From contig JADKBZ010000008.1 in assembly GCA_016714815.1 (NCBI GenBank), positions 53,513 to 117,512 of the forward strand: 64,000 nucleotides of DNA, written 5' to 3'. The DNA comes from Holophagales bacterium (GTDB lineage Bacteria > Acidobacteriota > Thermoanaerobaculia > UBA5066). Made by a program: the position numbers and the translations under genes. Of the stretch, positions 16,652 through 62,736 are shown piece after piece; the stretch's first letter is position 1, and each line of letters starts with the position of its first letter. The notes beneath the pieces are model-generated. The model saw only the letters and a program-made list of their open reading frames with translations. It was not told the DNA's origin and did no database searches.

Positions 16652-16679
16652 GGGGTCAGGTCTTGATTTTCTACTATAG
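16652..16679 (+). repeat. Conserved 28-bp AT-rich motif, copy a (GGGGTCAGGTCTTGATTTTCTACTATAG)
   Basis: The 19-bp core GGGGTCAGGTCTTGATTTT is identical in four copies in this window. Lies about 275 bp upstream of the Uma2 gene. Confidence 0.8.
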
Positions 16680-16788
16680 GTCTTGCAGGTAGGCGCGATG
16701 GGGCTAGCCCTTTCTCCGGCTGAAGCTGCCAGCGAGAGAACGACGGAAGCCGGATCGAGCCCCGGGACGATGAAAGCCGGCCCGACGC

Positions 16789-16822
16789 CGCTTGATTGCA
16801 ACGAAAAACGGAACTGACCCCC
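16789..16822. repeat. Partial, rearranged copy of the 28-bp motif (CTTGATTGCAAC...CTGACCCC)
   Basis: CTTGATT followed 17 nt later by CTGACCCC (the reverse complement of GGGGTCAG), about 110 bp downstream of copy a. Weaker evidence. Confidence 0.35.
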
Positions 16823-16953
16823 GTGCACTCCGTCCCGCCGGAGATGGAACGGCTCTTCGCGGAGCTCCTGCGGCAGCTGGAGAGCTGAGCGAGGAGCGCC
16901 TCCTCCGCTTCCCCGCGGCGTCCGCCGCCTTCTTCCGAGAGTAGACTTCGCAC

Positions 16954-17535
16954 ATGTCAGCCCTCCCGGACCTCGCCTCCCACTTCCGGGCTCTCGAGGC
17001 GATCCTGGAAGCCCAGCCGGAGGGCCAGAATGTCGAGATCGCCCGGGGCGTCTACGCGATGACTCCCCGGCCCCGGTTCCGGCACGCCGTCGTGCAGACG
17101 AACCTGTCATCCGCGCTGAAGGTACGGTTCGGTACAGGCACGCCGGCCACCCCTCCCGACTGGCTGTTTGCAATCGAACCCGAGATCCGCTCCGAGGAGG
17201 CCTTCTCGCGCCTCATCCCGGACGTGGCCGGCTGGCGCCGCTCGACGACGGGCTGGCCCGATGGGGACGAGAACCCCGTGACGCTCGCTCCGGACTGGGT
17301 GGCGGAAATCCTCTCGCCGGGAACCGAGGCGTACGACCGGGGCCCGAAGCGCGAAGCGTGGGGCCTCGTCGGAGCGGGATACCTCTGGATCGTCGATCCC
17401 GTCCGGCGCCTCGTCGAGACGTTCGTGAACGTCCGCGGGAAGATGATCGCCGGACCGGTCCTCCTCACGGACGACGTCCTCGCGGCACCGCCATTCGAGG
17501 GACTCTCCGAGCCGGTGGCCGGGATCTTCCTGTAG
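16954..17535 (+). CDS. Uma2-family (DUF820) putative restriction-endonuclease-like protein
   Basis: 193 aa. Characteristic ...APDWVAEILSPGT... (PD-(D/E)xK-like Uma2 motif). Confidence 0.8.
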   Translation: MSALPDLASHFRALEAILEAQPEGQNVEIARGVYAMTPRPRFRHAVVQTNLSSALKVRFGTGTPATPPDWLFAIEPEIRSEEAFSRLIPDVAGWRRSTTGWPDGDENPVTLAPDWVAEILSPGTEAYDRGPKREAWGLVGAGYLWIVDPVRRLVETFVNVRGKMIAGPVLLTDDVLAAPPFEGLSEPVAGIFL

Positions 17536-17584
17536 CCGGGTGTCCTCCCGATCTCGACCGCCCGGCTCCGGGCGGCGGCTCCGC

Positions 17585-18043
17585 TCAATCCTCGAGCTGC
17601 CTTTCGTGGCCGTTCGGACAGGTGCCCCGGATCGAGTCGTGCCAGCCGTCGTCGTCGAAGACCGACCAGGTGCGCCAGTGGCCGCGGCAGAAGACGCTCG
17701 CGCACTGCGGGCAATAGAACGGCGCGTACTCCGGGTCGACGGACAGCAGGGCCGGGGCGTCGCCCCGACGAACCGAACCGGCGAGAGGTTCGAGCGCGAG
17801 GAGAGGCAGCCGGGTCGTGGAGTGCCCCAGGAAGCCCGAGACGACGAGGCTCGCGTGGTCTTCGGCGCGGCAGACCGTGACGGTCGCCGCGACCGCGCCG
17901 CACAGCGAGCAGGAGAACTCGTGAGTGGCGGCGACCAGCCCGGATGAGGAAGAGTCGGAGGACACGCGTGCGAATCGTAATCCGCCGACGGTCAGGCAAA
18001 GAGGGCGTGTCGGCCCGCGGCCGATCACGCCCGTCACTGGCAT
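17585..18043 (-). CDS. Small Cys-rich hypothetical protein (possible zinc ribbon), co-directional and immediately downstream of the 1432-aa membrane protein
   Basis: High GC3 on the minus strand for the C-terminal ~125 codons (..SCSLCG..C..YCPQCASVFCRGHW..CPNGHE). The N-terminal ~25 codons have low GC3, so the true start may be the GTG at 17965. The plus-strand ORF 17540..17947 is rejected. Confidence 0.4.
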   Translation of the reverse strand: MPVTGVIGRGPTRPLCLTVGGLRFARVSSDSSSSGLVAATHEFSCSLCGAVAATVTVCRAEDHASLVVSGFLGHSTTRLPLLALEPLAGSVRRGDAPALLSVDPEYAPFYCPQCASVFCRGHWRTWSVFDDDGWHDSIRGTCPNGHERQLED

Positions 18044-18053
18044 CGGGGGCTCG

Positions 18054-21000
18054 TCAGCGATCCGGGGGCTCCTCTGCCGGGGGGTCGAGCGGGGGCGGAG
18101 GAGGCGGAGGAGGGATTGAAGGAGGGATGGGCGGAGGCACGGCCCCCGGCGGCGCCATGTTCCGATCCACTTTCGGCTTCGGTTTCGAGAGAGGCTTCCA
18201 CCCCCCGCCCGCGACGTACGCCGACCACGCCCATTTCAGCCAGGCAATGAGTCGCGTCGCGAGCCAGAGCGACCAGAGAAGCATGACGACGCGATAGGTC
18301 CAGAGCGGGAGGCTGAAGACCCAGGCCCCGGGGAGCGCCCCGTCGAAGCGGTCGACGTACCACTTGAGGAGCGTGTCGCTGCTGCCGTTGCCGGCGACCT
18401 GCATGTCGGGCTTGATGAGCAGCCCCTCGTGGACGGCGCCGTAGAGGCCGGCGAGGAAGATCACGGTCCAGATGGCGAGGAGGAGCTGGAAGAAGTCGTG
18501 GAGGCCGGGGCTCTGCTCGGCCTTCTTCTCGCGCCACGCGAAGACGAGGAACCACCCCGCGACGGCGAGGACGGCGACGACGTGCAGCTGCGCGAGCCCG
18601 AAGCCGAGGAGGAGCCACTCCCACCCCTTGAGCGGGCTCGACGGGAGCGTGCCGAGGACGAGCGACAGGAAGGCGACGACGGCGAGAAGGCCCCAGAAGA
18701 GGACGGCCGGGCCCCAGCTCGGGCCTCCGGCGAAGAGGAGCCAGCGGTCGTTGGGAAGCTGGAGGGCGAGGTGCCCGTTCACCGCGGCCTGCCCCACGTG
18801 AACGCGCGGGAGCCGCTGGAGGAGCGAGATCCCCCCGGCCTGCCGCCACGTCACCTGGATCTTCTGGGCCCCCGGCCCCACGGAGAGGTGGAGCTCGTCG
18901 CCGTCGGGCCGGACGGGCCTCACGTCGTCGCCGACGCGCACCTCCTGCACCTCGGCCTTCGCGGGGAGCGTGATCGTCAGCGGCCCGGTGCGGCTCGCGC
19001 GGACGGAGAGCGCGAGGGTCGCGTCGAGGAGCCGGACGCCCGGGCTGACCAGGAGCGAGGCGTCGTCGATGGTGAGGCTCTGCCCCTGGGCCCCGGCCGG
19101 CCTCTGGAAGGCCAGGTCGAGCGACTCGCCAGGCCACGGGCGGTACTCCGAGGCGAGCGTTCCGTCCGCCTCGCGGGAGGTCGGCGCGAAGGCGCCCTTC
19201 GCCGAGCACTGCCAGACGGCGCCGCAGCGGAGGACCCAGACCTCCGACCAGGGCTTCCCCTCGGCGGCTTTCAGCGTGAGGGTCGCGCCGTCGGCGGGCT
19301 TCAGCGTCGACGTCCAGCGCGTCTCCTCCTCGTCGCGCCCGAACGTGAGGAGGACCTCGCCGTCCTTCACGGGATGGTCGGCGTCGGTGACGAGCATCCC
19401 CTTCAGGAGCGGGACCTTCACGACGAGCGGCGTCCCGGGCGGGCTGACGCGGCGGACGACCGTTTCGACCTTCCACGAAATGCCGATCTCGAAGATCCGC
19501 GTCACCTCGAGCCACGGCTCGTAGTGCCCTTCGGACCCCGCCTCCCCGCGGCTCCCCGCGTCGAGCTTGCGCGTGAGCTGGACGGAGCCGTCGGTCGTGC
19601 CGTCCTCGCGGACGCCGTCCACCTGCCATCCGTCGGCGACGGCACGTATCCGGCGCGGCCGGTCGACGAACTGGAGGGCGAGGCTGTCGCGCGGCGGAAG
19701 GGGCCCCGAGACGACGACCTGGTGCGTCCCGGCCGAAAGGCGCAGGTGGAGGAATCCGTCGTCGCGCCGCGCAAGGGCGAAGGCGGGCTGCCCGTCGACC
19801 GTGACGCTGCGCGGGACCCACGCCGACGCCGGGCCGGGAACGGGCCAGGCGGCTTCGGAGGCGGCGTGGACCTCGGCGACGATCTCGACGTCGGCGCCCT
19901 TCACGGCGAGGCGCACGTCGGGGGTCGCGATGCAGCTCGGGGCGCAGGCCGGCGGCCGGGTCAGGCGCGTCTTGAGCTCTTCGAGGATCCCGGCGTCGGG
20001 AAGCCCTTCGAGCGCCGCGGGCTTCGCAGCGTTCGCCGCGTTCGGCTCCGGAGCGGGCTCCTCCCCGGCGGCCGCGACGCGGGGGACGCCGAGGAGGAGG
20101 ACGAGGAGCGCGGCGGTGGCCACCGGCCTTCCGGGGCGGAACCCCTCGCCGACGCGAGGATTGGAGAGGAGGCGCAGGGCGAGGAGGCCGACGAGGAGGA
20201 CGCGGACGACGGCGAGGACGAGGTTGAGGAAGGGCGAGAGGAGGAAGAGGCGGATGCGGTGATCCTTCGCGACCGGGCCCGACCAGCGGAGGGGCTGGGC
20301 GTTCCAGCTCCAGGTCGGCACGCCGGAGCCGGTCTGGATGACGGCGTGCGGGTCCTGCCGGTAGGCCTCGTCCGACGACTTCGACGGGGGCACGACGCTC
20401 GCAGCCTGATTCTGGAGGTAGAGCTGCGCCGACTTTCGGAGAGGCGACGGCGTCGGCATCGCCCTGCCAAGGGCTTCCTGCGGTGCGGACGGGGGCGCCA
20501 TCGCGGGGGCCGCCTCGGCAAACGCATGCACTTCCTGGGACTTCGGGGCCTCTGCGACCGAGACCATTCCCCCGTCCGCCCAGACCGGCGGTCCGGCCTG
20601 CTCCGTCTGCGGGTAGAGCCCGTGCCTCACCTGCCCCACCGCGAACGGAAGCGCGACGACGACGAGGACGAGAGCGGAGACTCCCCACCAGGTGAGGACC
20701 ACCAGACGGAGCTTTCCCCTGGCGACCACGGTGAGGAGGGCCGCCGCGCCGAGGAGGCTGAGCCAGACGAGCGCGGGCGCCCCCGCCTCGCCGTGGCAGG
20801 CGACGAGGGTCGCCAGCGCAACCACGCCCCAGCGCCAGCCCGCGAGCTTCCACGCCGCGAGGGCGACGAGAAGGACGAGGAAGAAGCCGAAGAGGTCCCA
20901 CCTCCCGAGCCAGGCCTGCGGCGTGGAGTCGACCCCGCGGGCCCCCAGGAGACGCCAGCCCGGAGGCAGGTAGAGCGTGCCGGAGAGCCCCTGCACGTCG

Positions 21001-22352
21001 ATTCCCCAGCCGACCGCAGACAGCCGGCCGGGCCGGCCGGCCAGGCGCGACTCGGCGGTCATCCGAAGGGTCGTCCTTCGGAGCTCCACGCCCGAGAGCT
21101 TCTCCGCCGGGTCGACGGTGATGAGCTGGTCCTCGCCGTCGACGGTGGCCCGGCCGAGGCTCCCCGGGGAGAGGAGGTTGAGGCGCGAGGTGCGGCGGAG
21201 AGTTCCCGAGAAGCGATCCCGCACGGTGAAGCCCTTCCCGTCCAGGTCGAGCCAGAGCTCGCGCGAGACGTTGACCTGGTCGGGCGCGGCCTCCGCCTCG
21301 CCCCGGCGCGTCTCGACGAGATTCAGCTCCGTCTTCGAATCGAGCTGGAAAGCGGGGAGCTTCTGCCACTCGACGGGGAGGTCCGTTCTCGACGGGTCGA
21401 TCGGCGTCCCTCCCGAGAGCTCCACCTGGCGGAGCCGTTCGTTCGCCGCGAAGACCCAGATCTCCTGGCCGGGCCACGGCGCGATCACGGCGGCGTCGGG
21501 CCGGAAGGCCGAGGGCCGGCCCTCGACGCGGAAAAGGACCGATACGGTGAATCGCCCCGTTCGCACTTGGACGACGAGGCGGCCGTCGGCGTCGAGCCGC
21601 GCGGGGAGCTCGCCTCGCACGGCGACGGGGACCGTCCCCGGAAGTCGGGCACCCGAGAGCTTCACCTCGCGTGCCTTTCCCGAGACCTCGAGGAGGAGGC
21701 GCGTCTCGAGGAAGAGCGGGATGCCGTCCTCCAGGCGGCGGAAGACCTTCACCCGCAGCTCCTCGCCGACTCCGGCCCGTTCCCCTTCCTGCCGGAGGAG
21801 GAGGAGTCCGTTCTCCTCGCGTCGCGGGAACGCCACCGTCCGCCCGTCGAGAACGAGGTCGAGGAGGGCCGTTTCCGGGGGGACGACGAGCGAGTCGGGA
21901 AGAGTGCTCCAGGCGAATCGTCCCTCGACCGTGTGGCGTCCCGCGCCGAGGAGGACCGCGGGGCGGTCGTCCCTCGGGACGACGGCGGCAGCCTTCCCGT
22001 CGAGCCGCACGTCCTGCGGCCAGACTTTCGCGTCGCCCGGCAGCGGGAGGAAGAGGGGCCGTTCGGCCCACGCCTCCAGGACGAACGTCCCGCCGGAGGC
22101 TCCGAGGCGGAGCGTGATCCGTCCGGGCCACAGGCAGACGGCTTCGTCGCCGACGGCCGGGCAGGTGCGGTCGCGCGCCCCGTCGAGAGCCCAGGGCACC
22201 CAGCCCTTCAGCGCGGGCGGGAGGTCCTTCTCTGGAAACGGCTGCGCGGCCGCCCGGGGCGCGGCCGCGGCCAGGGCCGCCGCCAGGACCACCGCGAGAG
22301 ACGTGGAGACGAACGCGAAGTCCGTCGCGGGCCGGGATCCGCTGCGAGTCAT
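18054..22352 (-). CDS. Large (1432 aa) membrane protein with an internal tandem duplication ([~430-600 aa periplasmic domain + ~4-TM bundle] x2) and a Pro-rich C-terminal tail; no family assigned
   Basis: Signal peptide MTRSGSRPATDFAFVSTSLAVVLAAALAAAAPRAAA. Two hydrophobic clusters (about aa 470-570 and aa 1215-1390) with similar local sequence (..WKLAGWRWGVV.. and ..LKGWEWLLLG..). The two periplasmic halves are alignable (CP..C.WPGRITL../CAPSCIATPDVRLAV..; ..RPLFLPLPGDAKVWPQDVRLDGKAAAVVPRDDRPAVLLGAGRHTVEGRF.. / ..AAWPVPGPASAWVPRSVTVDGQPAFALARRDDGFLHLRLSAGTHQVVVSG..). The opposite-strand 1399-aa ORF is Arg/Glu-rich junk. Confidence 0.7.
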   Translation of the reverse strand: MTRSGSRPATDFAFVSTSLAVVLAAALAAAAPRAAAQPFPEKDLPPALKGWVPWALDGARDRTCPAVGDEAVCLWPGRITLRLGASGGTFVLEAWAERPLFLPLPGDAKVWPQDVRLDGKAAAVVPRDDRPAVLLGAGRHTVEGRFAWSTLPDSLVVPPETALLDLVLDGRTVAFPRREENGLLLLRQEGERAGVGEELRVKVFRRLEDGIPLFLETRLLLEVSGKAREVKLSGARLPGTVPVAVRGELPARLDADGRLVVQVRTGRFTVSVLFRVEGRPSAFRPDAAVIAPWPGQEIWVFAANERLRQVELSGGTPIDPSRTDLPVEWQKLPAFQLDSKTELNLVETRRGEAEAAPDQVNVSRELWLDLDGKGFTVRDRFSGTLRRTSRLNLLSPGSLGRATVDGEDQLITVDPAEKLSGVELRRTTLRMTAESRLAGRPGRLSAVGWGIDVQGLSGTLYLPPGWRLLGARGVDSTPQAWLGRWDLFGFFLVLLVALAAWKLAGWRWGVVALATLVACHGEAGAPALVWLSLLGAAALLTVVARGKLRLVVLTWWGVSALVLVVVALPFAVGQVRHGLYPQTEQAGPPVWADGGMVSVAEAPKSQEVHAFAEAAPAMAPPSAPQEALGRAMPTPSPLRKSAQLYLQNQAASVVPPSKSSDEAYRQDPHAVIQTGSGVPTWSWNAQPLRWSGPVAKDHRIRLFLLSPFLNLVLAVVRVLLVGLLALRLLSNPRVGEGFRPGRPVATAALLVLLLGVPRVAAAGEEPAPEPNAANAAKPAALEGLPDAGILEELKTRLTRPPACAPSCIATPDVRLAVKGADVEIVAEVHAASEAAWPVPGPASAWVPRSVTVDGQPAFALARRDDGFLHLRLSAGTHQVVVSGPLPPRDSLALQFVDRPRRIRAVADGWQVDGVREDGTTDGSVQLTRKLDAGSRGEAGSEGHYEPWLEVTRIFEIGISWKVETVVRRVSPPGTPLVVKVPLLKGMLVTDADHPVKDGEVLLTFGRDEEETRWTSTLKPADGATLTLKAAEGKPWSEVWVLRCGAVWQCSAKGAFAPTSREADGTLASEYRPWPGESLDLAFQRPAGAQGQSLTIDDASLLVSPGVRLLDATLALSVRASRTGPLTITLPAKAEVQEVRVGDDVRPVRPDGDELHLSVGPGAQKIQVTWRQAGGISLLQRLPRVHVGQAAVNGHLALQLPNDRWLLFAGGPSWGPAVLFWGLLAVVAFLSLVLGTLPSSPLKGWEWLLLGFGLAQLHVVAVLAVAGWFLVFAWREKKAEQSPGLHDFFQLLLAIWTVIFLAGLYGAVHEGLLIKPDMQVAGNGSSDTLLKWYVDRFDGALPGAWVFSLPLWTYRVVMLLWSLWLATRLIAWLKWAWSAYVAGGGWKPLSKPKPKVDRNMAPPGAVPPPIPPSIPPPPPPPPLDPPAEEPPDR

Positions 22353-22421
22353 CCTGTCCTCCGAAAACCGTGTAGCTCGGAAGAGGATAGACCGTCGGAC
22401 CCCGGGTCCGGTTCCCGCTTC

Positions 22422-23648
22422 CTACTCGTACCGCAGCGCCTCGATCGGATCGAGGCGGGAGGCCTTGAGCGCCGGGTAGAACCCGAACGTCACTCCGATG
22501 AGGGCCGAGAAGAGGAAGGCGACGGCGACCGCGTTCGCCTGCACGGCGACGGGCCAGCCGGCGAAGGTCGCGATCGCCCGCTGGATGCCGATCCCGAGGG
22601 CGATCCCGAGGCTGCCGCCGCTGATTGAGAGGACGACCGCCTCGACGAGGAATTGCGCCCGGATGTCGCCCCCCTTCGCGCCGACGGCGAGCCGGACCCC
22701 GATCTCCCGCGTCCGCTCGGTCACCGAGACGAGCATGATGTTCATGATCCCGATGCCGCCGACGAGGAGCGACACGCCCGCGATCGACCAGAGGAGCGTC
22801 GCCATCGTCCGGCTCTCGTCCGCGGCGCGCTGGAGCATCTCGGTCTGCGAGCGGATGGAGAAGTCGTCCTCCTGGCCGGCGCCCCTGTTGATCCGGTGCC
22901 GCTGGCGAAGGAGAGCCGTGATCTCTTCCTGGGCGGCGCCGACCTGGTCGTTCGTCGCCGCCGACGCCAGGATCGACCCGACGGCGGTCGTCCCCATGAT
23001 CTTCTTTCGCACCGTCTGGTAGGGGGCGACGACGAGGTCGTCCTGGTCGTGCCCCTGGGTGGATCCCCCCTTGGCTTCGAGGACGCCGATCACGCGAAAG
23101 GGAATGTTCTTCAGCCGCACGATGCGGCCGATCGGGTCCTCCCCGGGCATCAGTGTCGTCGCCACCGTCTGGCCGAGGACGCAGACCTTCGCCGCCGCGC
23201 GGTTGTCCTGCTCGGTGAAGAACTGCCCCGCGGCGAGGTTCCAGGACCGGATGAGCGGCCAGTCGACCTCTCCCCCCTGGACGGTCGTCGACCAGTTCTG
23301 GTTTCCGGCGACGACCTGGACGCCGGTCCGGATCGAGGCGGAGACGTAGGCGATGGAGGAGACCTCCCGCCGGATCGCCTCGACGTCCTCCTCGGACAGC
23401 TTCGAGCTCGATCCGGCCCCCCCGTGGGCCCCGCCGACGGAGTGCGAGCCCGGGTTGATCATCAGGAAGTTCGTCCCGAGGGACTGGAGCCGCTCGGCCC
23501 GCTGCATCCGGGCACCGTCCGCGATCCCGATCGTCGCGATGACGCACGCAACGCCGATGATCATCCCGAGCGCCGTCAGGAGCGACCGCATCGTGTTGCG
23601 CGAGAGCGCCCGGAAGGCGACCTTGAGCGTGTTTCCGGTTCTGGACAT
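22422..23648 (-). CDS. FtsX/MacB-type ABC transporter permease (no cognate ATPase gene adjacent)
   Basis: 408 aa from ATG (revcomp 23646-23648) preceded by GGGAGG. N-terminal TM, about 230-aa periplasmic domain, C-terminal 3-TM FtsX domain (..IGIMNIMLVSVTERTREIGVRLAVGA..). Confidence 0.8.
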   Translation of the reverse strand: MSRTGNTLKVAFRALSRNTMRSLLTALGMIIGVACVIATIGIADGARMQRAERLQSLGTNFLMINPGSHSVGGAHGGAGSSSKLSEEDVEAIRREVSSIAYVSASIRTGVQVVAGNQNWSTTVQGGEVDWPLIRSWNLAAGQFFTEQDNRAAAKVCVLGQTVATTLMPGEDPIGRIVRLKNIPFRVIGVLEAKGGSTQGHDQDDLVVAPYQTVRKKIMGTTAVGSILASAATNDQVGAAQEEITALLRQRHRINRGAGQEDDFSIRSQTEMLQRAADESRTMATLLWSIAGVSLLVGGIGIMNIMLVSVTERTREIGVRLAVGAKGGDIRAQFLVEAVVLSISGGSLGIALGIGIQRAIATFAGWPVAVQANAVAVAFLFSALIGVTFGFYPALKASRLDPIEALRYE

Positions 23649-23828
23649 TCCGTCCTCCCGCGTGGGGAGCCTAGCAGGACGGGGGGGCCGGCCCGTTGAC
23701 TGAAGCGCATTCACCGGCCCCCAGGATGATCCACGGGAACGCTCGTGTCCTGCGACAGCTTTTCAGAATCGAGGCGCTTCGGGTATCTTCCCGGTCCGAG
23801 CGAACCCGCCGGCCAGGAGGATCACCCG

Positions 23829-24623
23829 ATGCGCACGATCTCCGACGTCTTTCCCTTTCTCGCCCTCGCCCTCGCCGCCGCGGTGGCGCTTCCCGCCTCC
23901 GCGGCCGTGAAGACCGAGGTCGTCGAATACAAGGACGGCGACCAGCTCTGCGAGGGGTTCCTCGCGTACGACGACGCGGTCAAGGAGAAGCGCCCCGGCG
24001 TCGTCGTCGTCCACGAGTGGATGGGCCTCGGCGACTACGCCCGGGAGCGGGCGACGAAGCTCGCCGGGCTCGGCTACGTCGCCTTCGCGGCCGACATCTA
24101 CGGCAAGGGTATCCGCGCGAAGGACTACAAGGAAGCGGGCCAGCTCGCCGGGAAATACAAGGGCGACCTTCCGCTCCTTCGCTCCCGCGGCCGGGCCGCC
24201 TTCGACACGCTCGCGAAGAACCTGCGCGTCGACCCCGCCCGGATCTTCGCCATCGGCTACTGCTTCGGCGGGACGGCGGCCCTCGAGCTGGCGCGCAGCG
24301 GCGCCCCGCTGGCGGGCGCCGTCTCGTTCCACGGCGGCCTCGCCACGAAGGACCCCGCCGACGCGAAGAACGTGAAGGGGCGTGTCCTCGTGCTGCACGG
24401 CGCGGCCGACCCGTACGTCCCGCCGGCCGAGGTCGCTGCCTTCCAGAAGGAGATGGACGACGCGAAGGTCGACTGGCAGATGGTCTTCTACTCGGGCGCC
24501 GTCCACTCGTTCACGAACCCGGGCTCGGGAAACGACCCGTCGAAAGGAGCCGCCTACGACGCGAAGGCCGACCGGCGCTCGTGGGAGGCGATGAAGGCCT
24601 TCTTCGCCGAAGCGACGAAATAG
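23829..24623 (+). CDS. Dienelactone hydrolase family protein (secreted alpha/beta hydrolase)
   Basis: ATG 23829 after AGGAGG. Signal peptide MRTISDVFPFLALALAAAVALPASA. ..GYCFGG.. nucleophile elbow; DLH-like. Confidence 0.8.
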   Translation: MRTISDVFPFLALALAAAVALPASAAVKTEVVEYKDGDQLCEGFLAYDDAVKEKRPGVVVVHEWMGLGDYARERATKLAGLGYVAFAADIYGKGIRAKDYKEAGQLAGKYKGDLPLLRSRGRAAFDTLAKNLRVDPARIFAIGYCFGGTAALELARSGAPLAGAVSFHGGLATKDPADAKNVKGRVLVLHGAADPYVPPAEVAAFQKEMDDAKVDWQMVFYSGAVHSFTNPGSGNDPSKGAAYDAKADRRSWEAMKAFFAEATK

Positions 24624-24681
24624 GGTCTTCCCGGGCAGACGCGGCGCCTCGCGGCGGGCTACGATCCCGCCGGACAAAACG

Positions 24682-28385: not shown

Positions 28386-28436
28386 CCCGGCGGCGGGGAG
28401 GCGGGCCCCGCCCGCCTCCCTCGTTCTCCTGCCGGC

Positions 28437-31811: not shown

Positions 31812-31934
31812 CGGATCCTCCGCCGGGGATGGTAACGCCCGCCCGGCGGACCGCCGTGGCCCGGAGCGCCTGCCCCGGGGACGGGTCTCGCGCGGACGCG
31901 GCGCCCGGAGGAAGATGGGTCCTCGAGGCCGCTC

Positions 31935-46284: not shown

Positions 46285-46287
46285 CCG

Positions 46288-47359: not shown

Positions 47360-47387
47360 CTATATTAGAAAATCAAGACCTGACCCC
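47360..47387 (-). repeat. Conserved 28-bp motif, copy b (minus orientation), about 70 bp upstream of the alpha/beta-hydrolase start
   Basis: The reverse complement reads GGGGTCAGGTCTTGATTTTCTAATATAG. Confidence 0.8.
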
Positions 47388-47399
47388 AAGCCGGGGGAA

Positions 47400-47711: not shown

Positions 47712-47778
47712 CCCGCCGGACGCGGGATGACGGGCGTCATGGCGGCGGACCGGAGACCGCCCTTCCGGCTCGCTCCGC

Positions 47779-53190: not shown

Positions 53191-53282
53191 CGCGATCGGC
53201 AATCTTACGCCGCGCCCGGCGCCCGATCACGGGCTAAGATCCACCGGTGCGGGGCCACTGAAGCGGCCCTGGGAGTGCTTCG

Positions 53283-53804: not shown

Positions 53805-53907
53805 CTCTCCGGCCCCTCCCCGTCCGGTCGATGAGCCGCGCGGCGCCCGGCGCCGCGCGGCTCTTTTCTGCGCGGACTTCCGGCCGTCGAGACGCTACGA
53901 TTCCCGG

Positions 53908-55461: not shown

Positions 55462-55838
55462 AGGCCTCCGGGACGACGAAGACGCCGGGAGAGATCCTCG
55501 CGCACATCGGAGACCTCCTCGACTGGGCCCTCACGATGGCCGAAGGGACGCCGGCCTGGTCCACGTCGGCCCCCCTGCCGTGGGTCGACGAGGTGGCGCG
55601 CTTCCACGCCGGTCTCGCGAAGCTCGATGCCTTCCTCGCGTCCGACGCGCCTCTCGCCACGCCGCCGGAGAAGCTCTTCCAGGGTCCGATCGCCGACGCC
55701 CTCACCCACGCCGGCCAGATCGCGCTCCTGCGCCGCCTCGGAGGCGCCCCCGTCCGAAGCGAGAACTATTTCAGGGCGGACATCGCCGCCGGCCGCGTGG
55801 GACCGGAGCAGGCTCCGCCGAAGAGGGAGTTCGACTGA
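55356..55838 (+). CDS. DinB/YfiT-like (DinB_2 superfamily) metal-dependent hydrolase-like protein
   Basis: 160 aa from ATG 55356, the in-frame tail of ORF 53958..55838. ..HIGDLLDW...H.. pattern. Assignment moderate. Confidence 0.55.
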   Translation: MEKDPARDLLRHAVATLAYRCGKAARGAPEGFETLKASGTTKTPGEILAHIGDLLDWALTMAEGTPAWSTSAPLPWVDEVARFHAGLAKLDAFLASDAPLATPPEKLFQGPIADALTHAGQIALLRRLGGAPVRSENYFRADIAAGRVGPEQAPPKREFD

Positions 55839-55889
55839 AGGCTCCTGGCGCCCCTTTTCCCGACGGAGAGAGTTCCTGCGACTGGGCCC

Positions 55890-58640
55890 TCAGTGCCAGC
55901 GGGCCCTCATCACGCCGGCGACGGGCTCGGCCAGGATGATGCTCCCGAGGCTCTCCCGGGCTGCGATCGTGATGGAAGCTCCGTCCGGGGAGATTCCGAA
56001 CGACTCGGCGGGGAGGGCCGGATCGAAGCCGGCCAGCTTGCGGCGCGAAGCGGTCGTGTCCCGGCCCGGCACGACGTCCTGGACGAAAACCCCCGCCACC
56101 CCCTGCTCGTTCAACCCGACGAAGGCAAGGCGCCCGTCGGGCATCCAGCGGGAGCGGCCGACTTCCGATCCCGCATGGGCGTCGACCACCCCGAAGGGAA
56201 TCGAGCAGACCTCGGCGCCGTCCGCGAGCCTGACGACCCGCAGCGTCCGGAGGCCGGGGCCGAAGCCCTCGCGATACGCCACGTAAACGCCGTCGGGAGA
56301 GACCTCCGGCAGCTGAAGGGTGGCGCCGCGCGCGAGGAGCTCCGCGCCGGTGCCGTCGGAGCGGGACCGCCAGATCCCTTCCCGCCCGCCGTGCAACGAG
56401 CCCCACAGGAGAGTCGCCCCATCGGGAGTGAGGACCGGATTCTCGGCCTCGAATCCTCCGCGCGACAGGAGCCGGGCGCCGCTGCCGTCCACCGCCGACG
56501 TCCAGATCTCGAACCGCCCCGTCCGGTCGGAGCTCCAGAGGATCTGGCGACCGTCGGGGCTGAAGGACGGGTCCCAGTCTTGCGCGGCGTCGTCGGTCAC
56601 TCGCCGCAGGGCCCCGGAATCCCTCGACATCATCCAGAGGTCGAGCTGGCCGGAGCGGTCGGACGTGAAGAGGATCCACTTGCCGTCCGGCGAATAGACG
56701 GGCTGCCGATCCGTCGACGTTCCGTGAGTGAGCCAGCGGACCGGGCCGTTTCCGGAAGCCGGAACCTCGCGGAGGCTCTCACGCGTCGTGACCGATTCGA
56801 TGACGACGCGCCCGTCCCCGAGGACGTCGAGAATGCGGCCCGCGGAAGGCCACCAGGCGATGGTCTCGCTTCTCCCGTCCTTCACCGACATTCGAATCAG
56901 GTGAAGACCGACCGTTCGCGCGTGCGGGACACTCGCGTCGAAGATCCCGACCAGAAGGCCGGTCCCGGTCCCCAGCCAGGCGACCGACGTCGGCTGACGC
57001 GCGGAGAGCGGAAGCGGCAGGCGGCGGACGCCTCCGTCGTGCGAGACGAGGACGACGGACCCGGGGACGCCGCTCTGAGTGCTCCCCGCCTCGGAAAGAG
57101 CGACGAGGCTGCCGTCCGGGGAGAAGCGCGGGCTCGACAGGATCGTCGTGAAGCGGGCCAGCTCCCGCTCCTTCCCGCCGGCGAGGGGTGCGAGCACGAG
57201 CGCCGAAGACCGGTCTTCCGGGCGCAGGATGCGCAGGAAGGCGACCTCGGTCCCGTCGGGCGAGACGTCCCCCGACTCGGCCCCGCTGACGAGGCGCCGC
57301 TCTTCTCCCCCGACCACCGGGACTTTCCAGATCGACGAACCGGCCTTCTCGTCCGTTCGCGTGAAGAGGATCGACTGCCCGTCGGGGAAGAACCTCGGCT
57401 CTTCGTCCGCGGGACCGTTCGTGAGGGCCGTCTCTCCCTCGCCCTGGATCTGCTTCAGCCAGATGCGCGCCCCCCCCCCGCGTCGCGACGTGAACGCGAC
57501 GAGCTGCCCGTCGGGCGAGGCCGCGGGCGCGGAGTCGACCCCCGAGTGGGTCAGCGCGCGCAGGGTCGTCGGAGGCCGCACCGGGGCCTCGCGGCGCCAG
57601 AACACCAGGAGCGCGCCCAGAAGGGCGCCGGCCACGAGCGCCGCCAGCGTCCACGTCGCGCGCCGCAGGCCCCTGGAAAGGCGCCGGGACACGAGCCCCG
57701 CGAGGAGGCCCGGGCCGGCCGCCAGAGAGGTACCCGAGAGCGACTCGAGCGCGAAGGCGAGGTCGCGGGCCGACTGGAAACGCGCGACCTTCTGCTTCTC
57801 GAGGCACCGCCGGACGATCCGCTCCAGCTGCGGCACGATGCCCCGCCGGACCGACGCGAGGTCGACGGGCTCCTCACGCAGTATCGCCGCCATCGTGTCT
57901 GCCGCGGAGCCGGCGAGGAACGCCCTGCGGCCCGCGAGCATCTCGTAGAGGCAGACCCCGGCCGCGAAGACGTCGACCCTCCCGTCGATCTCCTCGCCGC
58001 GCACCTGCTCCGGAGCCATGTAGCCGACCGTGCCGACGACGACGTCGGAGCCCGTCTGCGCACCCGGCCTGGCCCGGCTTCCGCTCGACGGCGACGCGGG
58101 GCCGAGAAGCTTGGCGAGACCGAAGTCGAGGATCTTGGCGTGACCGTCGGCCGTCAGGAAGACGTTCTCCGGCTTCAGGTCGCGGTGGACGATCCCCTTC
58201 TCGTGCGCGGCCCCGAGCCCCCGGGCGATCTGGATCGCGATCTCCACGGCGCGCTGCGGCGCGAGGGGTCCGCGCCCGAGCCTCTCGCGGAGAGTCTCTC
58301 CTTCGAGCAGCTCCGAGACGAGGAAGGGTGCGCCGTCCTGGCTGCCGACGTCGTAGAGGACGACGACGTTCGGGTGGTTCAGGGCACCGGCGGCCCGCGC
58401 CTCCCGCTCGAACCTCTGGAACCGCTCCGCGTCCCCGTGAGCGGTTTCCGGCAGGACCTTGAGGGCGACGTCCCTCCCGAGGCGCGTGTCGCGGGCGCGA
58501 AAGACCTCCCCCATCCCGCCGTGTCCGATGGGAGCGACGACCTCGTACGGTCCCAGTCTCGAACCGATGACCAGCCTCACTCCGCAACGCCTCCGAAGAC
58601 CCCGGGTGTCGGCGGGCTCCCTCGAAAGACCCGCCGGCAC
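55890..58640 (-). CDS. Serine/threonine protein kinase with a TM segment and a C-terminal TolB-like (PD40) beta-propeller repeat domain
   Basis: Kinase motifs HRDLKPENVFL, DFGLAK, GTVGYMAPE. TM ..WTLAALVAGALLGALLVFW.. Many ..SPDG...F.S.R.G...IW.. repeats. The start may be a downstream GTG (..VRLVIGSRLGPYEV..). Confidence 0.85.
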   Translation of the reverse strand: MPAGLSREPADTRGLRRRCGVRLVIGSRLGPYEVVAPIGHGGMGEVFRARDTRLGRDVALKVLPETAHGDAERFQRFEREARAAGALNHPNVVVLYDVGSQDGAPFLVSELLEGETLRERLGRGPLAPQRAVEIAIQIARGLGAAHEKGIVHRDLKPENVFLTADGHAKILDFGLAKLLGPASPSSGSRARPGAQTGSDVVVGTVGYMAPEQVRGEEIDGRVDVFAAGVCLYEMLAGRRAFLAGSAADTMAAILREEPVDLASVRRGIVPQLERIVRRCLEKQKVARFQSARDLAFALESLSGTSLAAGPGLLAGLVSRRLSRGLRRATWTLAALVAGALLGALLVFWRREAPVRPPTTLRALTHSGVDSAPAASPDGQLVAFTSRRGGGARIWLKQIQGEGETALTNGPADEEPRFFPDGQSILFTRTDEKAGSSIWKVPVVGGEERRLVSGAESGDVSPDGTEVAFLRILRPEDRSSALVLAPLAGGKERELARFTTILSSPRFSPDGSLVALSEAGSTQSGVPGSVVLVSHDGGVRRLPLPLSARQPTSVAWLGTGTGLLVGIFDASVPHARTVGLHLIRMSVKDGRSETIAWWPSAGRILDVLGDGRVVIESVTTRESLREVPASGNGPVRWLTHGTSTDRQPVYSPDGKWILFTSDRSGQLDLWMMSRDSGALRRVTDDAAQDWDPSFSPDGRQILWSSDRTGRFEIWTSAVDGSGARLLSRGGFEAENPVLTPDGATLLWGSLHGGREGIWRSRSDGTGAELLARGATLQLPEVSPDGVYVAYREGFGPGLRTLRVVRLADGAEVCSIPFGVVDAHAGSEVGRSRWMPDGRLAFVGLNEQGVAGVFVQDVVPGRDTTASRRKLAGFDPALPAESFGISPDGASITIAARESLGSIILAEPVAGVMRARWH

Positions 58641-58683
58641 TCACCCCGGAGCAGAACCACCCTGCGTACTATAGGTCGCGTCT

Positions 58684-58711
58684 GGGGTCAGGTCTTGATT
58701 TTACATTATAC
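58684..58711 (+). repeat. Conserved 28-bp motif, copy c (GGGGTCAGGTCTTGATTTTACATTATAC), in the divergent region about 115 bp upstream of the 58826 gene
   Basis: The 19-bp core is identical to the other copies. The 3' part is a variant. Confidence 0.8.
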
Positions 58712-58825
58712 AGAGGGGAGCCACCGGCCTCGCCGGCCGGCCGCCTCAGAAATCCCGCATCTCTCTTGCACGCCGTTCTCAGAACCTCCCCTTCCCGCTC
58801 CCGTAGGACGACGGAGGAGGCTCGG

Positions 58826-60613
58826 ATGACCGACCGGCCCCGCCGCCTGGCCCTTCTCGCCGCCGGCCTCGCCCTTGCGCTTCCCCGGCCCGCCCAGGCC
58901 GCCAGCGGCGACGTCGTCTTCGCCACGTCCGTCGACACGCCCCTCCAGGCGCGCAGGGCGAGCTTCCTCGTCGACTCGCTCCGGTGCTTCGGCGGGCCGC
59001 TCGCCGACGCTCCCGTCCACGTCGTCGTCGACTCCGTCCTCGAGGAGACGGCGCCGCTCCGGAACCGGCCCGGCGTCACCGTGCTTCCTCTCGAGGGGGA
59101 TCCGGCGATCCGGCGCTTCCCGTACGCGCGGAAGGTCCTCGCCGCGGCGCAGGTCGAGCGCCTCGTCGAGAAGAGCGCGAGGACGCTCGTCTGGCTCGAC
59201 GCGGAAACCCTCGTCCTCTCGCCTCCGTCCTCCCTCGTCCTCCACGGCGACGCGACGCTCGCCGTCCGCCCCGTCTTCCTGCGGAACGCCGTCGCCCTTC
59301 CGGAAGGAGCGCCGCTCGACGCCTGGTGGACGAGGATCGCGCGGGAGACGGGCCTCGACCCCTCGTTCCCCGAGACCGTCGTACCGCTCGTCGACCCCGG
59401 ACGCGTCCGCTGGTACGTCAACTGCGGCGTCTACGCCGTCCGGCCTTCGAAGGGCCTCCTCAGGGAGTGGGCGCGCGGGTTCACCGCGCTCGCCTCCGAC
59501 CCGCAGATCGGTCGCGACGCGGGACCGGGAAACCTGCGCCGCACTTTCCTCCACCAGGCCGTCTTCAGCGCCGTCGTCCTCGCCCGCACGAGCCCGGCCG
59601 AGAGGTCGTGGCTTCCGAACGAGGCGGGCTACCCGCTCCACCTCCACGAGCGGGTTCCGTCCCCCTCCCGCCTCGCGCGGCTCGACGACGCCCAGGTCGT
59701 CCTCTACGAAGACCTCTTCGAGCGCCGGCCCGACTGGCGCGGCCTGGTCCCGGCGTCTGACGACCTCGGCTCGTTCCTCCTGGGGGCGGACGCGGCGACG
59801 GACTGGGCCCGCGCCCTTCCCTTCGCCGAGGCGGCCGCCGAGGCCGCCGGGGAGGCGCACGTCGAGGCGCTCTACCGCCTCGCGCGCAGCCACGCGCTCC
59901 TCGGCCAGCGGAAGGAGGCGCTGGACGCCCTTCAACGAGCCCACGAAGCCGGGGTCGTCGACGTCTTCGAGCTCCGCAAGGACGAGGCGTTCGCCCCAAT
60001 GAAGGACGACGAGCGCTTCAAGACGATCTCGAAGGCGATCGGGGTCAAGCGGTACATCGCCATGCTCGAGAGGAAGGAGCGGGACTCTTTCCAGAAGCCC
60101 GACGAGGTCCTGCGCGCCCTCGCGCTCCGGCCCGGCGAGCGGGTCGCCGACGTCGGGGCCGGCTCGGGCTACTTCACGCTCCGCGCCGCGCGGGCGGTCG
60201 GACCGACGGGAGAGGTTCTCGCGATCGACATCAACCCCGACATCCTCGAGTTTCTCGACGGGCGCCTGAAGGAGGCGGGGCTCACGAACGTGAAGACCGT
60301 CCGCGTCGGGAAGGACGACCCGAAGCTGCCGGCCGGCGGCGTCGACACGATCCTGATGGTCGACACCCTCCACTACGTTTCCGGGCGCGACGCGTACGCG
60401 AAGAAGCTGCGTGCGGGCCTCGCGCCGGGGGGTCGCGTCGTCGTCATCGACTACACGCCGAAGCCCTGGTCGGAGCGCCCGTGGGGGCCGCCGCCCGAGC
60501 AGAAGATGGCTCGCGAGGAGGTGGACGAGGCGATGGCGGCCGCCGGCCTCGTCCCGTCGAAGGTCCACGACTTCCTCCCGGAGCAGTTCTTCGTCGAGTA
60601 CGTGGCGCGCTAG
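58826..60613 (+). CDS. Secreted/anchored bifunctional protein: N-terminal domain with GT-A/nucleotide-sugar-transferase-like features (tentative), helical linker, C-terminal class I SAM-dependent methyltransferase
   Basis: ATG 58826 after GGAGGAGG. N-terminal MTDRPRRLALLAAGLALALPRPAQA (signal, possibly Tat-like RR). ..WLDAETLVL.., ..YVNCGVYAV.. in the N-domain. ..VADVGAGSGYFTL.. (motif I) in the C-domain. Confidence 0.7.
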   Translation: MTDRPRRLALLAAGLALALPRPAQAASGDVVFATSVDTPLQARRASFLVDSLRCFGGPLADAPVHVVVDSVLEETAPLRNRPGVTVLPLEGDPAIRRFPYARKVLAAAQVERLVEKSARTLVWLDAETLVLSPPSSLVLHGDATLAVRPVFLRNAVALPEGAPLDAWWTRIARETGLDPSFPETVVPLVDPGRVRWYVNCGVYAVRPSKGLLREWARGFTALASDPQIGRDAGPGNLRRTFLHQAVFSAVVLARTSPAERSWLPNEAGYPLHLHERVPSPSRLARLDDAQVVLYEDLFERRPDWRGLVPASDDLGSFLLGADAATDWARALPFAEAAAEAAGEAHVEALYRLARSHALLGQRKEALDALQRAHEAGVVDVFELRKDEAFAPMKDDERFKTISKAIGVKRYIAMLERKERDSFQKPDEVLRALALRPGERVADVGAGSGYFTLRAARAVGPTGEVLAIDINPDILEFLDGRLKEAGLTNVKTVRVGKDDPKLPAGGVDTILMVDTLHYVSGRDAYAKKLRAGLAPGGRVVVIDYTPKPWSERPWGPPPEQKMAREEVDEAMAAAGLVPSKVHDFLPEQFFVEYVAR

Positions 60614-60671
60614 GAAGCCCGCCGCGCCTCTCCCGGCGGAGGCGCGGCTTCCCTTCGGCCCCTCGGGCCGG

Positions 60672-61156
60672 TCAGTGCGTCTTCGCCGGGACGGCTCCGG
60701 CGGCCTTCTCCGCCAGGTACCAGGCGTGCTCGGGACGCGCGAGGATCGAGTCGATCACCGCGTTCACCGCGTCGGCCTGACCTTTCCTTCCCTCGGCCGC
60801 GGCCTTCGCCGCGAGCTCGCGCGCCTCGGGGATCACGGCCTGCACGAACCGAGCGACCCGTCCAGGTTGAGCCGCGGCGTGACGACCATCGCGAAGGTCA
60901 CGCCTTCGTGCTCGAAGGCGTCCGGCTCCCCCTTCTTCGCCTGATGGCAGTGCCAGCATCCCACCTGGGCCCGGGCGTGCGCGCTGCCCTGCCAGTGCGG
61001 GACGAGCCCCGGGCTCCCCTGTTCGTGGCAGGCGAGTCACGCCTCCGACTTCGCGAGGTCCGCAACTGCGGGTGCGCCGGCCAGTGGCGGGGTGAGGGCC
61101 GCGGGAAGCAGGAAAGCAGCGGCGAGGACCAGGGTCCGTGTCGTGTCCGGATTCAT
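60672..61156 (-). pseudogene. Di-haem c-type cytochrome, apparently disrupted: in-frame TGA at the first Cys of the first CxxCH, plus a frameshift before the C-terminal segment
   Basis: ATG (revcomp 61154-61156) after GGAGGAG. Signal peptide MNPDTTRTLVLAAAFLLPAALTPPLAGAPA. Reads ..AKSEA-TGA-LACHEQ.. (would be CLACH) then ..GCWHCH.. in the same frame, which stops at 60833. The plausible C-terminus (..VIPEARELAAKAAAEGRKGQADAVNAVIDSILARPEHAWYLAEKAAGAVPAKTH) continues in a different frame to 60672. Confidence 0.45.
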
Positions 61157-61334
61157 CGTCAGCTCCTCCTCGAGGTCGGGCCGAGGACAGTCTGTTCGGT
61201 CGGGTCGACTTCCGACATGATCCGCGTCATACGGGCCAGCGGGGGAATCCGGAAGGAGAGGCCTCCGACGGTCGGGACCGACGGACTGCGAGGGCTTCGT
61301 GAAGAACTGCCGTCACAACCCAGGAGGGAACGCG

Positions 61335-62723
61335 ATGAGTCGACATGCTCCTGCCGACGTCACGAGAGACGTTCGCGCATTCATCCATGCGCACGTCCCG
61401 ATCTCCGCCCTCCTGGCGCTCTCGCTCATCGCTGCAACTCCCGCCCGCGCGGCCGACCCGCCCGGGCTCGTCGGCCTGGACGCGCTCTACCCGTCGCTCG
61501 ACGCGCTCTACCTCGACCTCCACCAGAACCCGGAGCTGTCCCTGCACGAAGAGAGAACGGCCGCCGAGATGGCGGCGCGCCTGCGCAAGGCTGGCTTCGA
61601 AGTCACGGAGCACGTCGGCGGCACCGGCGTCGTCGGCGTCCTGAAGAACGGGCCCGGTCCGACCGTCCTCGTCCGAACCGACATGGACGCCCTGCCGATG
61701 CCGGAGAAGACCGGGCTCCCCTACGCGAGCTCCGCCACGGCGAAGAGCGACGCCGGCGAAACCGTCCCCGTGGCGCACGCGTGCGGCCACGACGTCCACG
61801 TGACGTCCTGGGTCGGCGCGGCCACGCTCCTCGCACACGCCAGGACCCGGTGGAGCGGAACTCTCGTCTTCGTGGGGCAGCCCGCGGAAGAGGTACTCCG
61901 GGGCGCCGACCAGATGATCCGGGACGGCCTCTTCACGCGCTTCCCGAAGCCGGACTTCGTCGTGGGCCTCCACGTCAGCAACCTCATCGCCGCCGGCCGG
62001 GTCGGCGTTCCGCCGGGGCCGGCGTCCGCCGCCTCGAATGCCGTCGACATCACCTTCTACGGGCGCGGCGGCCACGGCGCCGCGCCGCATCGCACCGTCG
62101 ATCCCGTCCTGATCGCGGCCCGTGCCGTGGTGGCCCTCCAGAGCATCGTGTCGCGCGAGATCAACCCCTTCGATCCGGCGGTCGTCACGGTCGGCACGAT
62201 CCACGCGGGGACGAAGCGGAACATCATTCCCGACGAGGCGAAGCTCGAGCTGACCGTCCGCTCCTACAAGCCCGAGGTGCAGAAGCAGCTCCTCGCGGCG
62301 ATCGAGCGGATCGCAAAGGCCGAGGCGGCGGCCGCCGGCGCGCCGCGCCCGCCGGAGATCGTCGTCGATCCCCGCGAGGCGTCCGAGGTGGTCGTCAACG
62401 ACCCCGCCCTCGCGGCTCGCCTCTCGTCGGCGCTTCGTCGCGGGCTCGGCGACGCGAACGTCGTCCCGCACGAGCCCGCGAGCTCTTCCGAGGACTTCGG
62501 CGTCTACGGCCGGGTCGCCGGCGTCCCCGGAGTCCAGCTCCGCGTCGGCGCGATACCGCCGGACGAGTTCGCCACAGCGGCGAAGGAGGGCCGATCCGTC
62601 CCCGGGCCGCACAACTCCAGGTTCGCTCCCGACCGCGAGCCCACGATCCGCACCGGGGTCTCGGCTCTCACGCTCTCCGTCCTCGAACTCCTCGGTCTCC
62701 CCGCCAGGGGGGTCAGGTCTTGA
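61335..62723 (+). CDS. M20-family amidohydrolase (aminoacylase/hippurate-hydrolase-like), secreted
   Basis: ATG 61335 after AGGAGGGA. Signal-like ..ISALLALSLIAATPARAA. ..AHACGHDVH.. metal-binding motif of M20D. The stop TGA lies inside motif copy d. Confidence 0.8.
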   Translation: MSRHAPADVTRDVRAFIHAHVPISALLALSLIAATPARAADPPGLVGLDALYPSLDALYLDLHQNPELSLHEERTAAEMAARLRKAGFEVTEHVGGTGVVGVLKNGPGPTVLVRTDMDALPMPEKTGLPYASSATAKSDAGETVPVAHACGHDVHVTSWVGAATLLAHARTRWSGTLVFVGQPAEEVLRGADQMIRDGLFTRFPKPDFVVGLHVSNLIAAGRVGVPPGPASAASNAVDITFYGRGGHGAAPHRTVDPVLIAARAVVALQSIVSREINPFDPAVVTVGTIHAGTKRNIIPDEAKLELTVRSYKPEVQKQLLAAIERIAKAEAAAAGAPRPPEIVVDPREASEVVVNDPALAARLSSALRRGLGDANVVPHEPASSSEDFGVYGRVAGVPGVQLRVGAIPPDEFATAAKEGRSVPGPHNSRFAPDREPTIRTGVSALTLSVLELLGLPARGVRS

Positions 62724-62736
62724 TTTTCTACTATAG
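62709..62736 (+). repeat. Conserved 28-bp motif, copy d (GGGGTCAGGTCTTGATTTTCTACTATAG), wedged between two convergent genes and supplying both stop codons
   Basis: TGA (62721-62723) ends the + strand amidohydrolase. The reverse complement of CTA (62731-62733) is the TAG ending the - strand amidase. Confidence 0.8.

Follow-up and report, generated by a model that had tools for sequence, protein, structure and literature searches.

Why does one 19-nt word, AT-rich and identical in each of its four copies, recur between the genes of a bacterial DNA whose GC content is 68-73 %? The question is raised by a 64,000-nt stretch from a Holophagales bacterium (assembly GCA_016714815.1, contig JADKBZ010000008.1, positions 53,513 to 117,512), the whole of which is referred to below as the window. 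The motif is very probably the terminal inverted repeat (TIR) of a TIRtron, and its copies in the window are then orphan, non-autonomous single TIRs of a Thermoanaerobaculia/Holophagales subfamily. Such a TIRtron would comprise a compact Y1/HUH transposase gene (TIRYT, RAYT-like, of subclass 2.1, with a helix-turn-helix (HTH)-like extension) bounded by inverted TIRs, each made up of GGGGTCAGGTCTTGA(TTTT) and a lineage-specific tail of ~9 nt. This reading draws on the sequence identity of the motif with TIRtron ends, the protein family enclosed by these ends, the dispersal of the motif as singles and doublets, and its pattern of gain and loss at orthologous sites. The repeat is of a known kind: both the TIRYT/TIRtron family and its TIR repeat families have been described previously.

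The motif and its copies in the window

The copies in the window, each a putative solo TIR repeat, are as follows.

16652..16679, + strand: copy 1, exact 28-mer; GGGGTCAGGTCTTGATTTT followed by the tail CTACTATAG
47360..47387, - strand: copy 2, 28-mer with one mismatch; 19-mer at 47369-47387, tail CTAATATAG
58684..58711, + strand: copy 3, 19-mer at 58684-58702; divergent tail ACATTATAC after base 19
62709..62736, + strand: copy 4, exact 28-mer; 19-mer at 62709-62727

All four lie between genes and start with GGGGTCAG. The exact 19-mer GGGGTCAGGTCTTGATTTT is expected 0.01 times in the window by chance, a count of four was reached in none of 100 shuffles, and no further site is present at up to three mismatches. 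The claim of an earlier note on this DNA, that 19 identical bases in four copies cannot be a chance event, is thus borne out. Its headline of five sites of a perfectly conserved 28-bp motif is overstated, as copy 3 diverges after base 19 and the proposed fifth site is weak; the body of that note described the copies correctly, the 28-mer being exact at two sites and differing by one mismatch at a third. The 28-bp boundaries are about right. In a profile of 72 copies with the window's tail type, taken from high-GC loci, the conserved block reads t-GGGGTCAGGTCTTGATTTT-CTAYTMTRG-c, extending from a preferred T before the first G to approximately position 28-29, and both flanks have background composition. 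On its own, the 28-mer is unstructured (-0.3 kcal/mol, z 0.1), and no partner arm accompanies three of the four copies. A literature search on the sequence found no paper containing the exact GGTCAGGTCTTGA.

TIRtron units bounded by the motif

RAYT-like genes flanked by long inverted repeats were termed TIRYT, and the corresponding units TIRtrons, by Di Nocera, De Gregorio and Rocco (2013; PMC3733652). Many of the described TIRs share GGGGWSAS, and some form moderately abundant repeat families that occur as singles, dimers, and groups or clusters; the TIRYTs include a sharply defined Acidobacteria group, and Koribacter versatilis harbors a TIR repeat family (PMC3733652). Most TIRYTs were later assigned to TnpA-REP subclass 2.1, defined by a C-terminal extension similar to HTH_23, HTH_28 or Bac_DnaA_C (Quentin et al. 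2018; PMC6006769). The motif agrees with this family in that GGGGTCAG fits the GGGGWSAS consensus, inverted TIRs flank a RAYT-like Y1/HUH gene with a C-terminal HTH-type extension (in related genomes, not in the window), and the TIR is dispersed as singles, dimers, and clusters. It differs from the published cases in several respects: neither hosts of the type of Thermoanaerobaculia/Holophagales metagenome-assembled genomes (MAGs) nor the tail CTAYTMTRG are among them, four copies in 64 kb are denser than "moderately abundant", the identity of 15-19 nt of the TIR across many phyla exceeds the 8-nt consensus, and some units carry a Macro-domain passenger gene.

In Desulfobacterota and Desulfurellaceae, the motif constitutes both inverted ends of a ~0.95-1.6 kb unit (the low-GC unit measures ~925 bp); a unit with the window-type tail is also found in Holophagales/Thermoanaerobaculia DNA of 70-73 % GC, and a variant motif forms the unit ends in Nitrospirota and Legionella. 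The positions of the unit ends in individual loci are as follows.

L061, 6944/6020: unit ends
L114, 91/1163: unit ends
L113, 128/1701: unit ends
L117, 1018/2560: unit ends
L126, 1464/2490: unit ends

In the low-GC loci L061, L059, and L068, the motif stands 26-27 nt upstream of an open reading frame (ORF) of ~285 codons whose product begins with MARPLRIE(F/Y)PGAVYH, and an inverted copy overlaps the stop codon (..FKT* = TTCAAGACCTGA). Variant ends occur also in L106-L111 and L129. The proteins P0115, P0080, and P0096, from Nitrospirota and other lineages, are all flanked by inverted ends of the GGGGTCAGGTCTTG(A/C)AAT type (GGGGTCAGGTCTTGAAATA variants); an identical P0115 protein is found in three different flanking contexts, which indicates mobility. 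The homologue on a Legionella plasmid has inverted AGGGTCAGGCCTTG ends.

The high-GC version was retrieved by scanning metagenomes for the conserved gene start 10-40 nt behind a window-type TIR (tail CTA). The scan yielded five contigs of 70-73 % GC, each with GGGGTCAGGTCTTGATTTTCTATTGTAGAAT..ATG and a TIRYT of 314-317 aa; their start region is GGGGTCAGGTCTTGATTTTCTATTGTAGAATCGGCGC-ATG or a close variant differing in the last few bases. An inverted right TIR with the tail CCAYTATRG is present in L113, L114, and L117, while the available sequence of L115 and L116 does not reach or show the right TIR. The high-GC protein is 48 % identical to the low-GC one, and its 90 % cluster includes MBK9375733.1 from a Holophagales MAG and HYN43246.1 from a Thermoanaerobaculia MAG. 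The unit on the Holophagales MAG contig JADJZB010000028 is 1,027 bp long (L126 1464-2490), and its right tail, CCATTATAG, is also found on dispersed copies. The cluster members and the L126 unit show that lineages with dispersed copies also encode the cognate gene. The TIRYT gene has the same neighbors in L113, L114, L117, and L126, where it occupies a single fixed locus.

A Macro-domain gene (PF01661, 154 bits) lies between the TIRYT stop and the right TIR in L113 (1119-1679) and L117 (~2000-2540), its start overlapping the TIRYT stop. L114 and L126 contain no such gene, so that it is a passenger gained or lost within the unit.

The encoded protein has a great many relatives: E <= 1e-10 was obtained for all 8,000 candidates scored, many of them on contigs of ~1 kb. 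Two members match Pfam Y1_Tnp (PF01797) with 52.5 and 44.6 bits. Against NCBIfam NF047646 (REP-associated tyrosine transposase, cutoff 80), a low-GC member scores 83.8 and an acidobacterial member 79.7, i.e., 0.3 short, and the score against the IS200 model NF033573 is 16.5 bits versus a cutoff of 55. An alignment of 18 family members shows that the HUH motif (H60-Y61-H62) and Y119, the latter within RY(V/I)xLNP, are invariant; a C-terminal HTH (HTH_23/HTH_38) was detected in the low-GC member only. A single-sequence search of solved structures gave no match, and a profile search identified E. coli TnpA-REP (PDB ID: 4ER8, E 0.015) as the best solved relative.

Comparison with better-known repeats narrows the assignment further. 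With the REP/REPIN-RAYT systems (Nunvar 2010; PMC3116915; PMC3333891; 4ER8; REP, repetitive extragenic palindrome), the motif shares the nature of a short intergenic repeat akin to the flanks of a usually single-copy Y1/HUH transposase gene, inverted doublets giving long hairpins (seen here in related genomes only), frequent location between convergent and co-directional genes, vertical inheritance, and persistence at orthologous sites. Unlike a classical REP, for which an imperfect palindrome of 20-40 bp would be expected, the single unit is not palindromic (the folding energy given above) and starts with GGGG, with neither a GTAG nor a CGTC tag; besides, it is shared across phyla, whereas REPs are species-specific. 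The TIRYT itself is ~130-150 aa longer than a RAYT and has an HTH-like tail. The transposase fold (PF01797) is common to IS200/IS605 insertion sequences (ISs), but these have subterminal hairpins and no TIRs, whereas the present element has TIRs and fails the IS200 model. Miniature inverted-repeat transposable elements (MITEs) of DDE transposases are likewise short non-autonomous derivatives that retain transposon ends, and the 60-64 bp doublets described below are MITE-like; however, the cognate enzyme here is an HUH tyrosine transposase and most copies are single ends. Inspection of the doublet ends in L012, L017, L032, L088, and L102 revealed no target-site duplication. The motif is therefore neither a classical REP nor a MITE of a DDE-type IS.

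Dispersal, orthologous sites, and competing explanations

A scan for the window's 18-mer covered one genome per species. It was found in more than 105 stretches from many phyla, a lower bound, against ~17 chance matches estimated arithmetically for 596 Gb. The taxa among the matches listed are Thermoanaerobaculia, Holophagales, Aminicenantes, other Acidobacteriota, Elusimicrobia, Aerophobetes, Methylomirabilota, Desulfobacterota, Desulfurellaceae, WOR-3, Thermotogae, Synergistota, Clostridia, Gemmatimonadaceae, and some Proteobacteria; isolated matches without the full GGGG (Paenibacillus L058, Actinomycetota L100) are probably due to chance. Many genomes contain several copies, often as inverted pairs. 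Beyond position 19 the tail is lineage-specific, being CTAYTMTRG in Thermoanaerobaculia/Holophagales MAGs and TGAATTATT, TGACTGA, TGCGT or TAGCAT elsewhere. Plasmids and viruses as the main carriers found no support: the 18-mer occurs in only two viral contigs, and a TIRYT homologue in 11 of 72,556 plasmid records. The closest of these, 45 % identical to the TIRYT and annotated as "transposase" (WP_131739603.1), is encoded by the plasmid NZ_LR134433.1 of the cultured Legionella adelaidensis (351818-353445, L129), where it is bounded by inverted AGGGTCAGGCCTTGCCTTT at L129 positions 283 and 1268.

The analyzed loci comprise 110 copies, of which 75 are singles. The other arrangements are inverted doublets of 60-64 bp, tandem doublets (L039, L052, L055), and pairs with a second arm type ending in GTAGACCTGACCCC. 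A 60-nt inverted doublet, an arrangement confined to related genomes, folds as a perfect hairpin (-32.4 kcal/mol, z -13). The tails of the two arms covary (54 cells changed on both sides, a number reached in 0 of 500 shuffles), although shared descent of both arms would yield the same result; such a match is expected if both arms come from one TIR variant.

Further arrangements were noticed among these loci. The second arm type, GGGGTCAGGTCTACSTTCTACACTCTGC, is present in L004, L022, L078, L085, and L105 (e.g., L078 5589-5652), where it pairs in inverted orientation with a standard arm across spacers of 10-130 nt. Related MAGs often carry arms of this second type ("type B", GGGGTCAGGTCTACCTTCTACACTC), but the window has none at up to three mismatches. 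The smallest form, L088 952-981, is a perfect 30-bp palindrome GGGGTCAGGTCTTGA|TCAAGACCTGACCCC, i.e., two 15-nt heads with neither tail nor spacer. In L106 (1923-1986, 32 bp units) and L059 (2462-2563, 51 bp units), the left TIR and the flank outside it form a tandem duplication, and shorter partial repeats containing GGGGTCA precede many copies (L005, L011, L022, L049, L101). These duplications and partial repeats may have been left behind by the mechanism of transposition or replication.

Gene contexts in the window are those reported by the earlier note. Copy 1 lies in a ~890-bp spacer between the isocitrate lyase and Uma2 genes, the latter starting 275 nt downstream. Copy 2 follows a DUF2492 gene at ~12 nt and precedes an alpha/beta hydrolase gene by 70 nt, both genes being on the minus strand. 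Copy 3 has a divergent Ser/Thr kinase gene with PD40 repeats on one side and a gene with a methyltransferase domain on the other. Copy 4 separates the convergent M20 peptidase and amidase genes and holds the stop codons of both (TGA at 62721-62723 and, on the minus strand, TAG at 62731-62733).

Three sites of the window have counterparts in other genomes. At the kinase site (copy 3), near-perfect 60-64 bp doublets are present in L012 (930-989), L018 (5332-5394), and L032 (669-728), with tails that vary between genomes and agree between both arms; in the window (58684-58711), only the kinase-adjacent arm remains. The amidase site is filled in L042, L049, and L057, and the copy 4 junction is also found in L118, L120, and L123. 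In three MAGs the motif stands ~40 nt upstream of a gene whose product contains MxRRVIDV. The kinase, amidase, and MxRRVIDV loci were fetched by means of the motif, which biases them towards conservation. An unbiased set consists of eight amidase orthologues of 67-90 % identity, fetched by means of the protein (L118-L125). The motif abuts the stop codon in three of these and is absent without remnant in five; on a neighbor-joining tree the filled sites do not form one clade, which requires at least three gains or losses. Proteins at empty sites end with ..PPPGA* or ..PPKGA* in three of the five cases, the outgroup included, and those at filled sites with ..GL*, ..SVE*, ..AAE* or ..AVK*; the element thus rewrites the last codons. 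The gene on the opposite side of filled sites varies (M20 peptidase, ABG transporter, C1-like peptidase).

The proposed mechanism starts from the fact that HUH Y1 transposases of the RAYT/REP and IS200/IS605 kinds act on single-stranded DNA and recognize hairpins. A TIRYT encoded elsewhere in the genome might bind the ends and copy, move or homogenize them in trans. Its likely substrate would be a hairpin formed in single-stranded DNA by an inverted doublet or by paired left and right ends; by analogy with the RAYT/REP and IS200/IS605 systems, nicking and rejoining at the GGGG boundary could spread doublets in trans, and the HTH-like tail might in addition recognize the GGTCAGGTC core as double-stranded DNA. 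On this view, a single copy is a half-element whose other arm was lost or has decayed, and it is probably immobile. Orphan TIRs would sit in any tolerant intergenic space, including the last codons of genes.

Could the copies instead be promoters or operators of the adjacent genes, with the AT-rich part acting as a -35/-10 element or regulator site? Co-oriented genes follow three of the four window copies, and the place of the motif ahead of a given gene recurs between genomes: four share it before the kinase gene and three before the MxRRVIDV gene. In the low-GC TIRtrons, the TTGATT, TTGAAA or TTGCAA of the TIR precedes a -10-like hexamer by 17-18 nt, the hexamer ending 5-6 nt before the TIRYT ATG; with this spacing, the TIR hexamer probably serves there as the -35 box of a transposase promoter that is leaderless. 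In the window's lineage, tail positions 27-22 spell T(69 %) A(92 %) K A(99 %) R T on the opposite strand, a well-conserved -10-like hexamer that points outwards, and some promoter potential may come with the motif as a side effect. At the window copies, however, none of the four contributes to a sigma-70-type pair of hexamers 16-18 nt apart. Gene context was also surveyed in the high-GC loci with a simple GC3-based gene call, which places 74 of 75 single copies between genes. Of the 40 singles with both neighbors within 600 bp, 17 are upstream of a co-oriented gene and 23 are not, i.e., there is no promoter-like bias in orientation; convergent pairs are the largest class (15), followed by tandem pairs with the motif upstream of a co-oriented gene (9), tandem pairs with the opposite orientation (8), and divergent pairs (8). 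The excess of convergent pairs resembles the preference of REP-like repeats for gene ends. Copy 4 and its orthologues are flanked by the ends of genes, only the above three of eight unbiased orthologues have the amidase site filled, and the cross-phylum distribution follows the transposase rather than a regulon. The TGA of CTTGATT is the stop codon of at least nine genes that run into the motif from its GGGG end, and the tail supplies the stop of many genes that enter from the other end. An apparent closeness of the GGGG end to start codons was discounted as an artefact, as the motif's own stops set where the longest ORF begins. The promoter or regulator-binding element suggested by the earlier note is accordingly improbable, while the small dispersed repeat, REP- or MITE-end-like, that it weighed beside it was essentially right. 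That note had held that a motif found to be the end of a larger known element, with a transposase elsewhere, would have to be recast as a mobile-element remnant; such an element is the TIRtron (PMC3733652, PMC6006769). A sigma-54 promoter was also considered: GG-N10-GA versus GG-N10-GC, with six of 12 consensus positions by eye, is unconvincing.

An element acting at the RNA level, either half of an intrinsic terminator or a structured small RNA, deserves hardly any credence. Copy 2 has the look of a terminator, with GGGGTCAG paired to the flank upstream and a T-rich run next to it, and the inverted doublets fold into the perfect hairpins described above. Yet the single copy is unstructured, a copy may follow the upstream gene in either orientation, and the head pairs with the upstream flank in 42 % of cases versus 38 % with random flanks, so that a terminator is no general property of the motif. 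No Rfam family matched at the motif (gathering threshold on the whole window; E <= 1 on 16060-16960), and no tRNA or tmRNA was found.

Domestication would lend the copies a function of another kind: a vertically inherited, single-locus TIRYT would bind the double-stranded 19-mer as a host factor, at sites under host selection, with proposed roles in regulation, nucleoid organization or replication-linked processing. The fixed locus of the TIRYT gene in L113, L114, L117, and L126 recalls the single-copy RAYTs for which domestication has been described (PMC5581495). Across phyla the 19-mer does not vary, against 48 % identity of the proteins, and the mismatch spectrum is steep: 569 kb of high-GC loci contain 91 exact 19-mers versus 17, 1, 6, and 4 copies with one, two, three, and four mismatches (28 in all), ten of the single-mismatch copies differing only at base 1. 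Motif positions are also common to genomes with non-aligning flanks. Nevertheless, all loci in this comparison were fetched by exact match, which inflates conservation, and an actively copied master sequence would yield a steep spectrum as well; the only unbiased sample, that of the amidase, is patchy, with its three or more gains or losses, and no common gene class adjoins the copies. Domestication is thus unlikely. A somewhat broader reading, in which single TIRs are maintained sites of a host-co-opted TIRYT and some serve in addition as portable outward promoters (reverse-strand TAKART), together forming a genome-wide network, is speculative and improbable; if true, it would amount to a transposase-derived site network with a 19-bp recognition sequence identical across more than ten phyla.

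Several points weigh against orphan TIRtron ends as well. Neither a TIRYT gene nor a fragment of one was found in the window (tblastn), and the cognate transposase of the source genome is deduced from related MAGs only. A single copy devoid of a hairpin is an odd substrate for a single-strand-specific HUH enzyme, and the origin of singles is unaccounted for. The 19-mer has stayed exact while the proteins drifted to 48 % identity, and some orthologous sites retain it in genomes with flanks that can no longer be aligned; both hint at a constraint beyond that expected of neutral relics. In the literature searched, the term TIRYT is used by PMC3733652 and PMC6006769 only, and no experimental or biochemical study of any TIRYT was found.

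As TIRtron ends, the copies would explain a conspicuous AT-rich repeat of high-GC Thermoanaerobaculia/Holophagales genomes as transposon-end debris and not regulatory code, which guards against annotating them as promoters or operators. The repeats reshape gene ends, the amidase and the M20 peptidase both terminating inside copy 4. The experimentally untouched TIRYT branch gains a defined, phylum-independent putative DNA target of 15-19 bp; with protein-DNA pairs such as MBK9375733.1 and its own ends, binding and cleavage become directly testable. The Legionella adelaidensis plasmid element (L129) is a possible experimental model.

The spacer of copy 1 and minor sequence features

The fifth site proposed by the earlier note, a partial rearranged copy, falls in the same spacer as copy 1.

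16798..16822, - strand: possible decayed partner arm of copy 1, GGGGGTCAGTTCCGTTTTTCGTTGC; uncertain

Within it, positions 16810-16821 read GGGGTCAGTTCC on the minus strand, with two mismatches to the 12-nt motif head. Two-mismatch matches to this head are expected ~9 times per window by chance, and the similarity does not suffice to count the site as a copy. It is inverted relative to copy 1 at a distance of 130 nt and resembles the "type B" arms of L105 and L078; the segment 16648-16826 pairs its ends when folded, only marginally better than shuffles do (z -1.9). The site may represent the decayed partner arm of copy 1.

A link between the motif and a candidate GntR operator, also put forward earlier, was dropped: the 9-mer GGTCAGACC on which it rests is no more frequent in the window than chance would have it (2 found versus 0.92 expected).

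The long spacer after isocitrate lyase contains other repeats. Approximately ten tandem 8-bp units (GGAGACCG-like) occupy 16154-16233. A 46-nt direct repeat (16289-16334 and 16433-16478; 98 % identical, with an exact 40-nt core) carries in each copy a GC hairpin, GGGGGGCC..GGCCCCCC, and has no third copy in the window; it may belong to a second, GC-rich repeat family. Just past the isocitrate lyase stop, at 16092-16123, a hairpin gives weak matches on both strands to STnc320, a Salmonella small RNA model (28.5 bits versus a gathering score of 50), the sole Rfam match obtained; this hairpin is probably the isocitrate lyase terminator.

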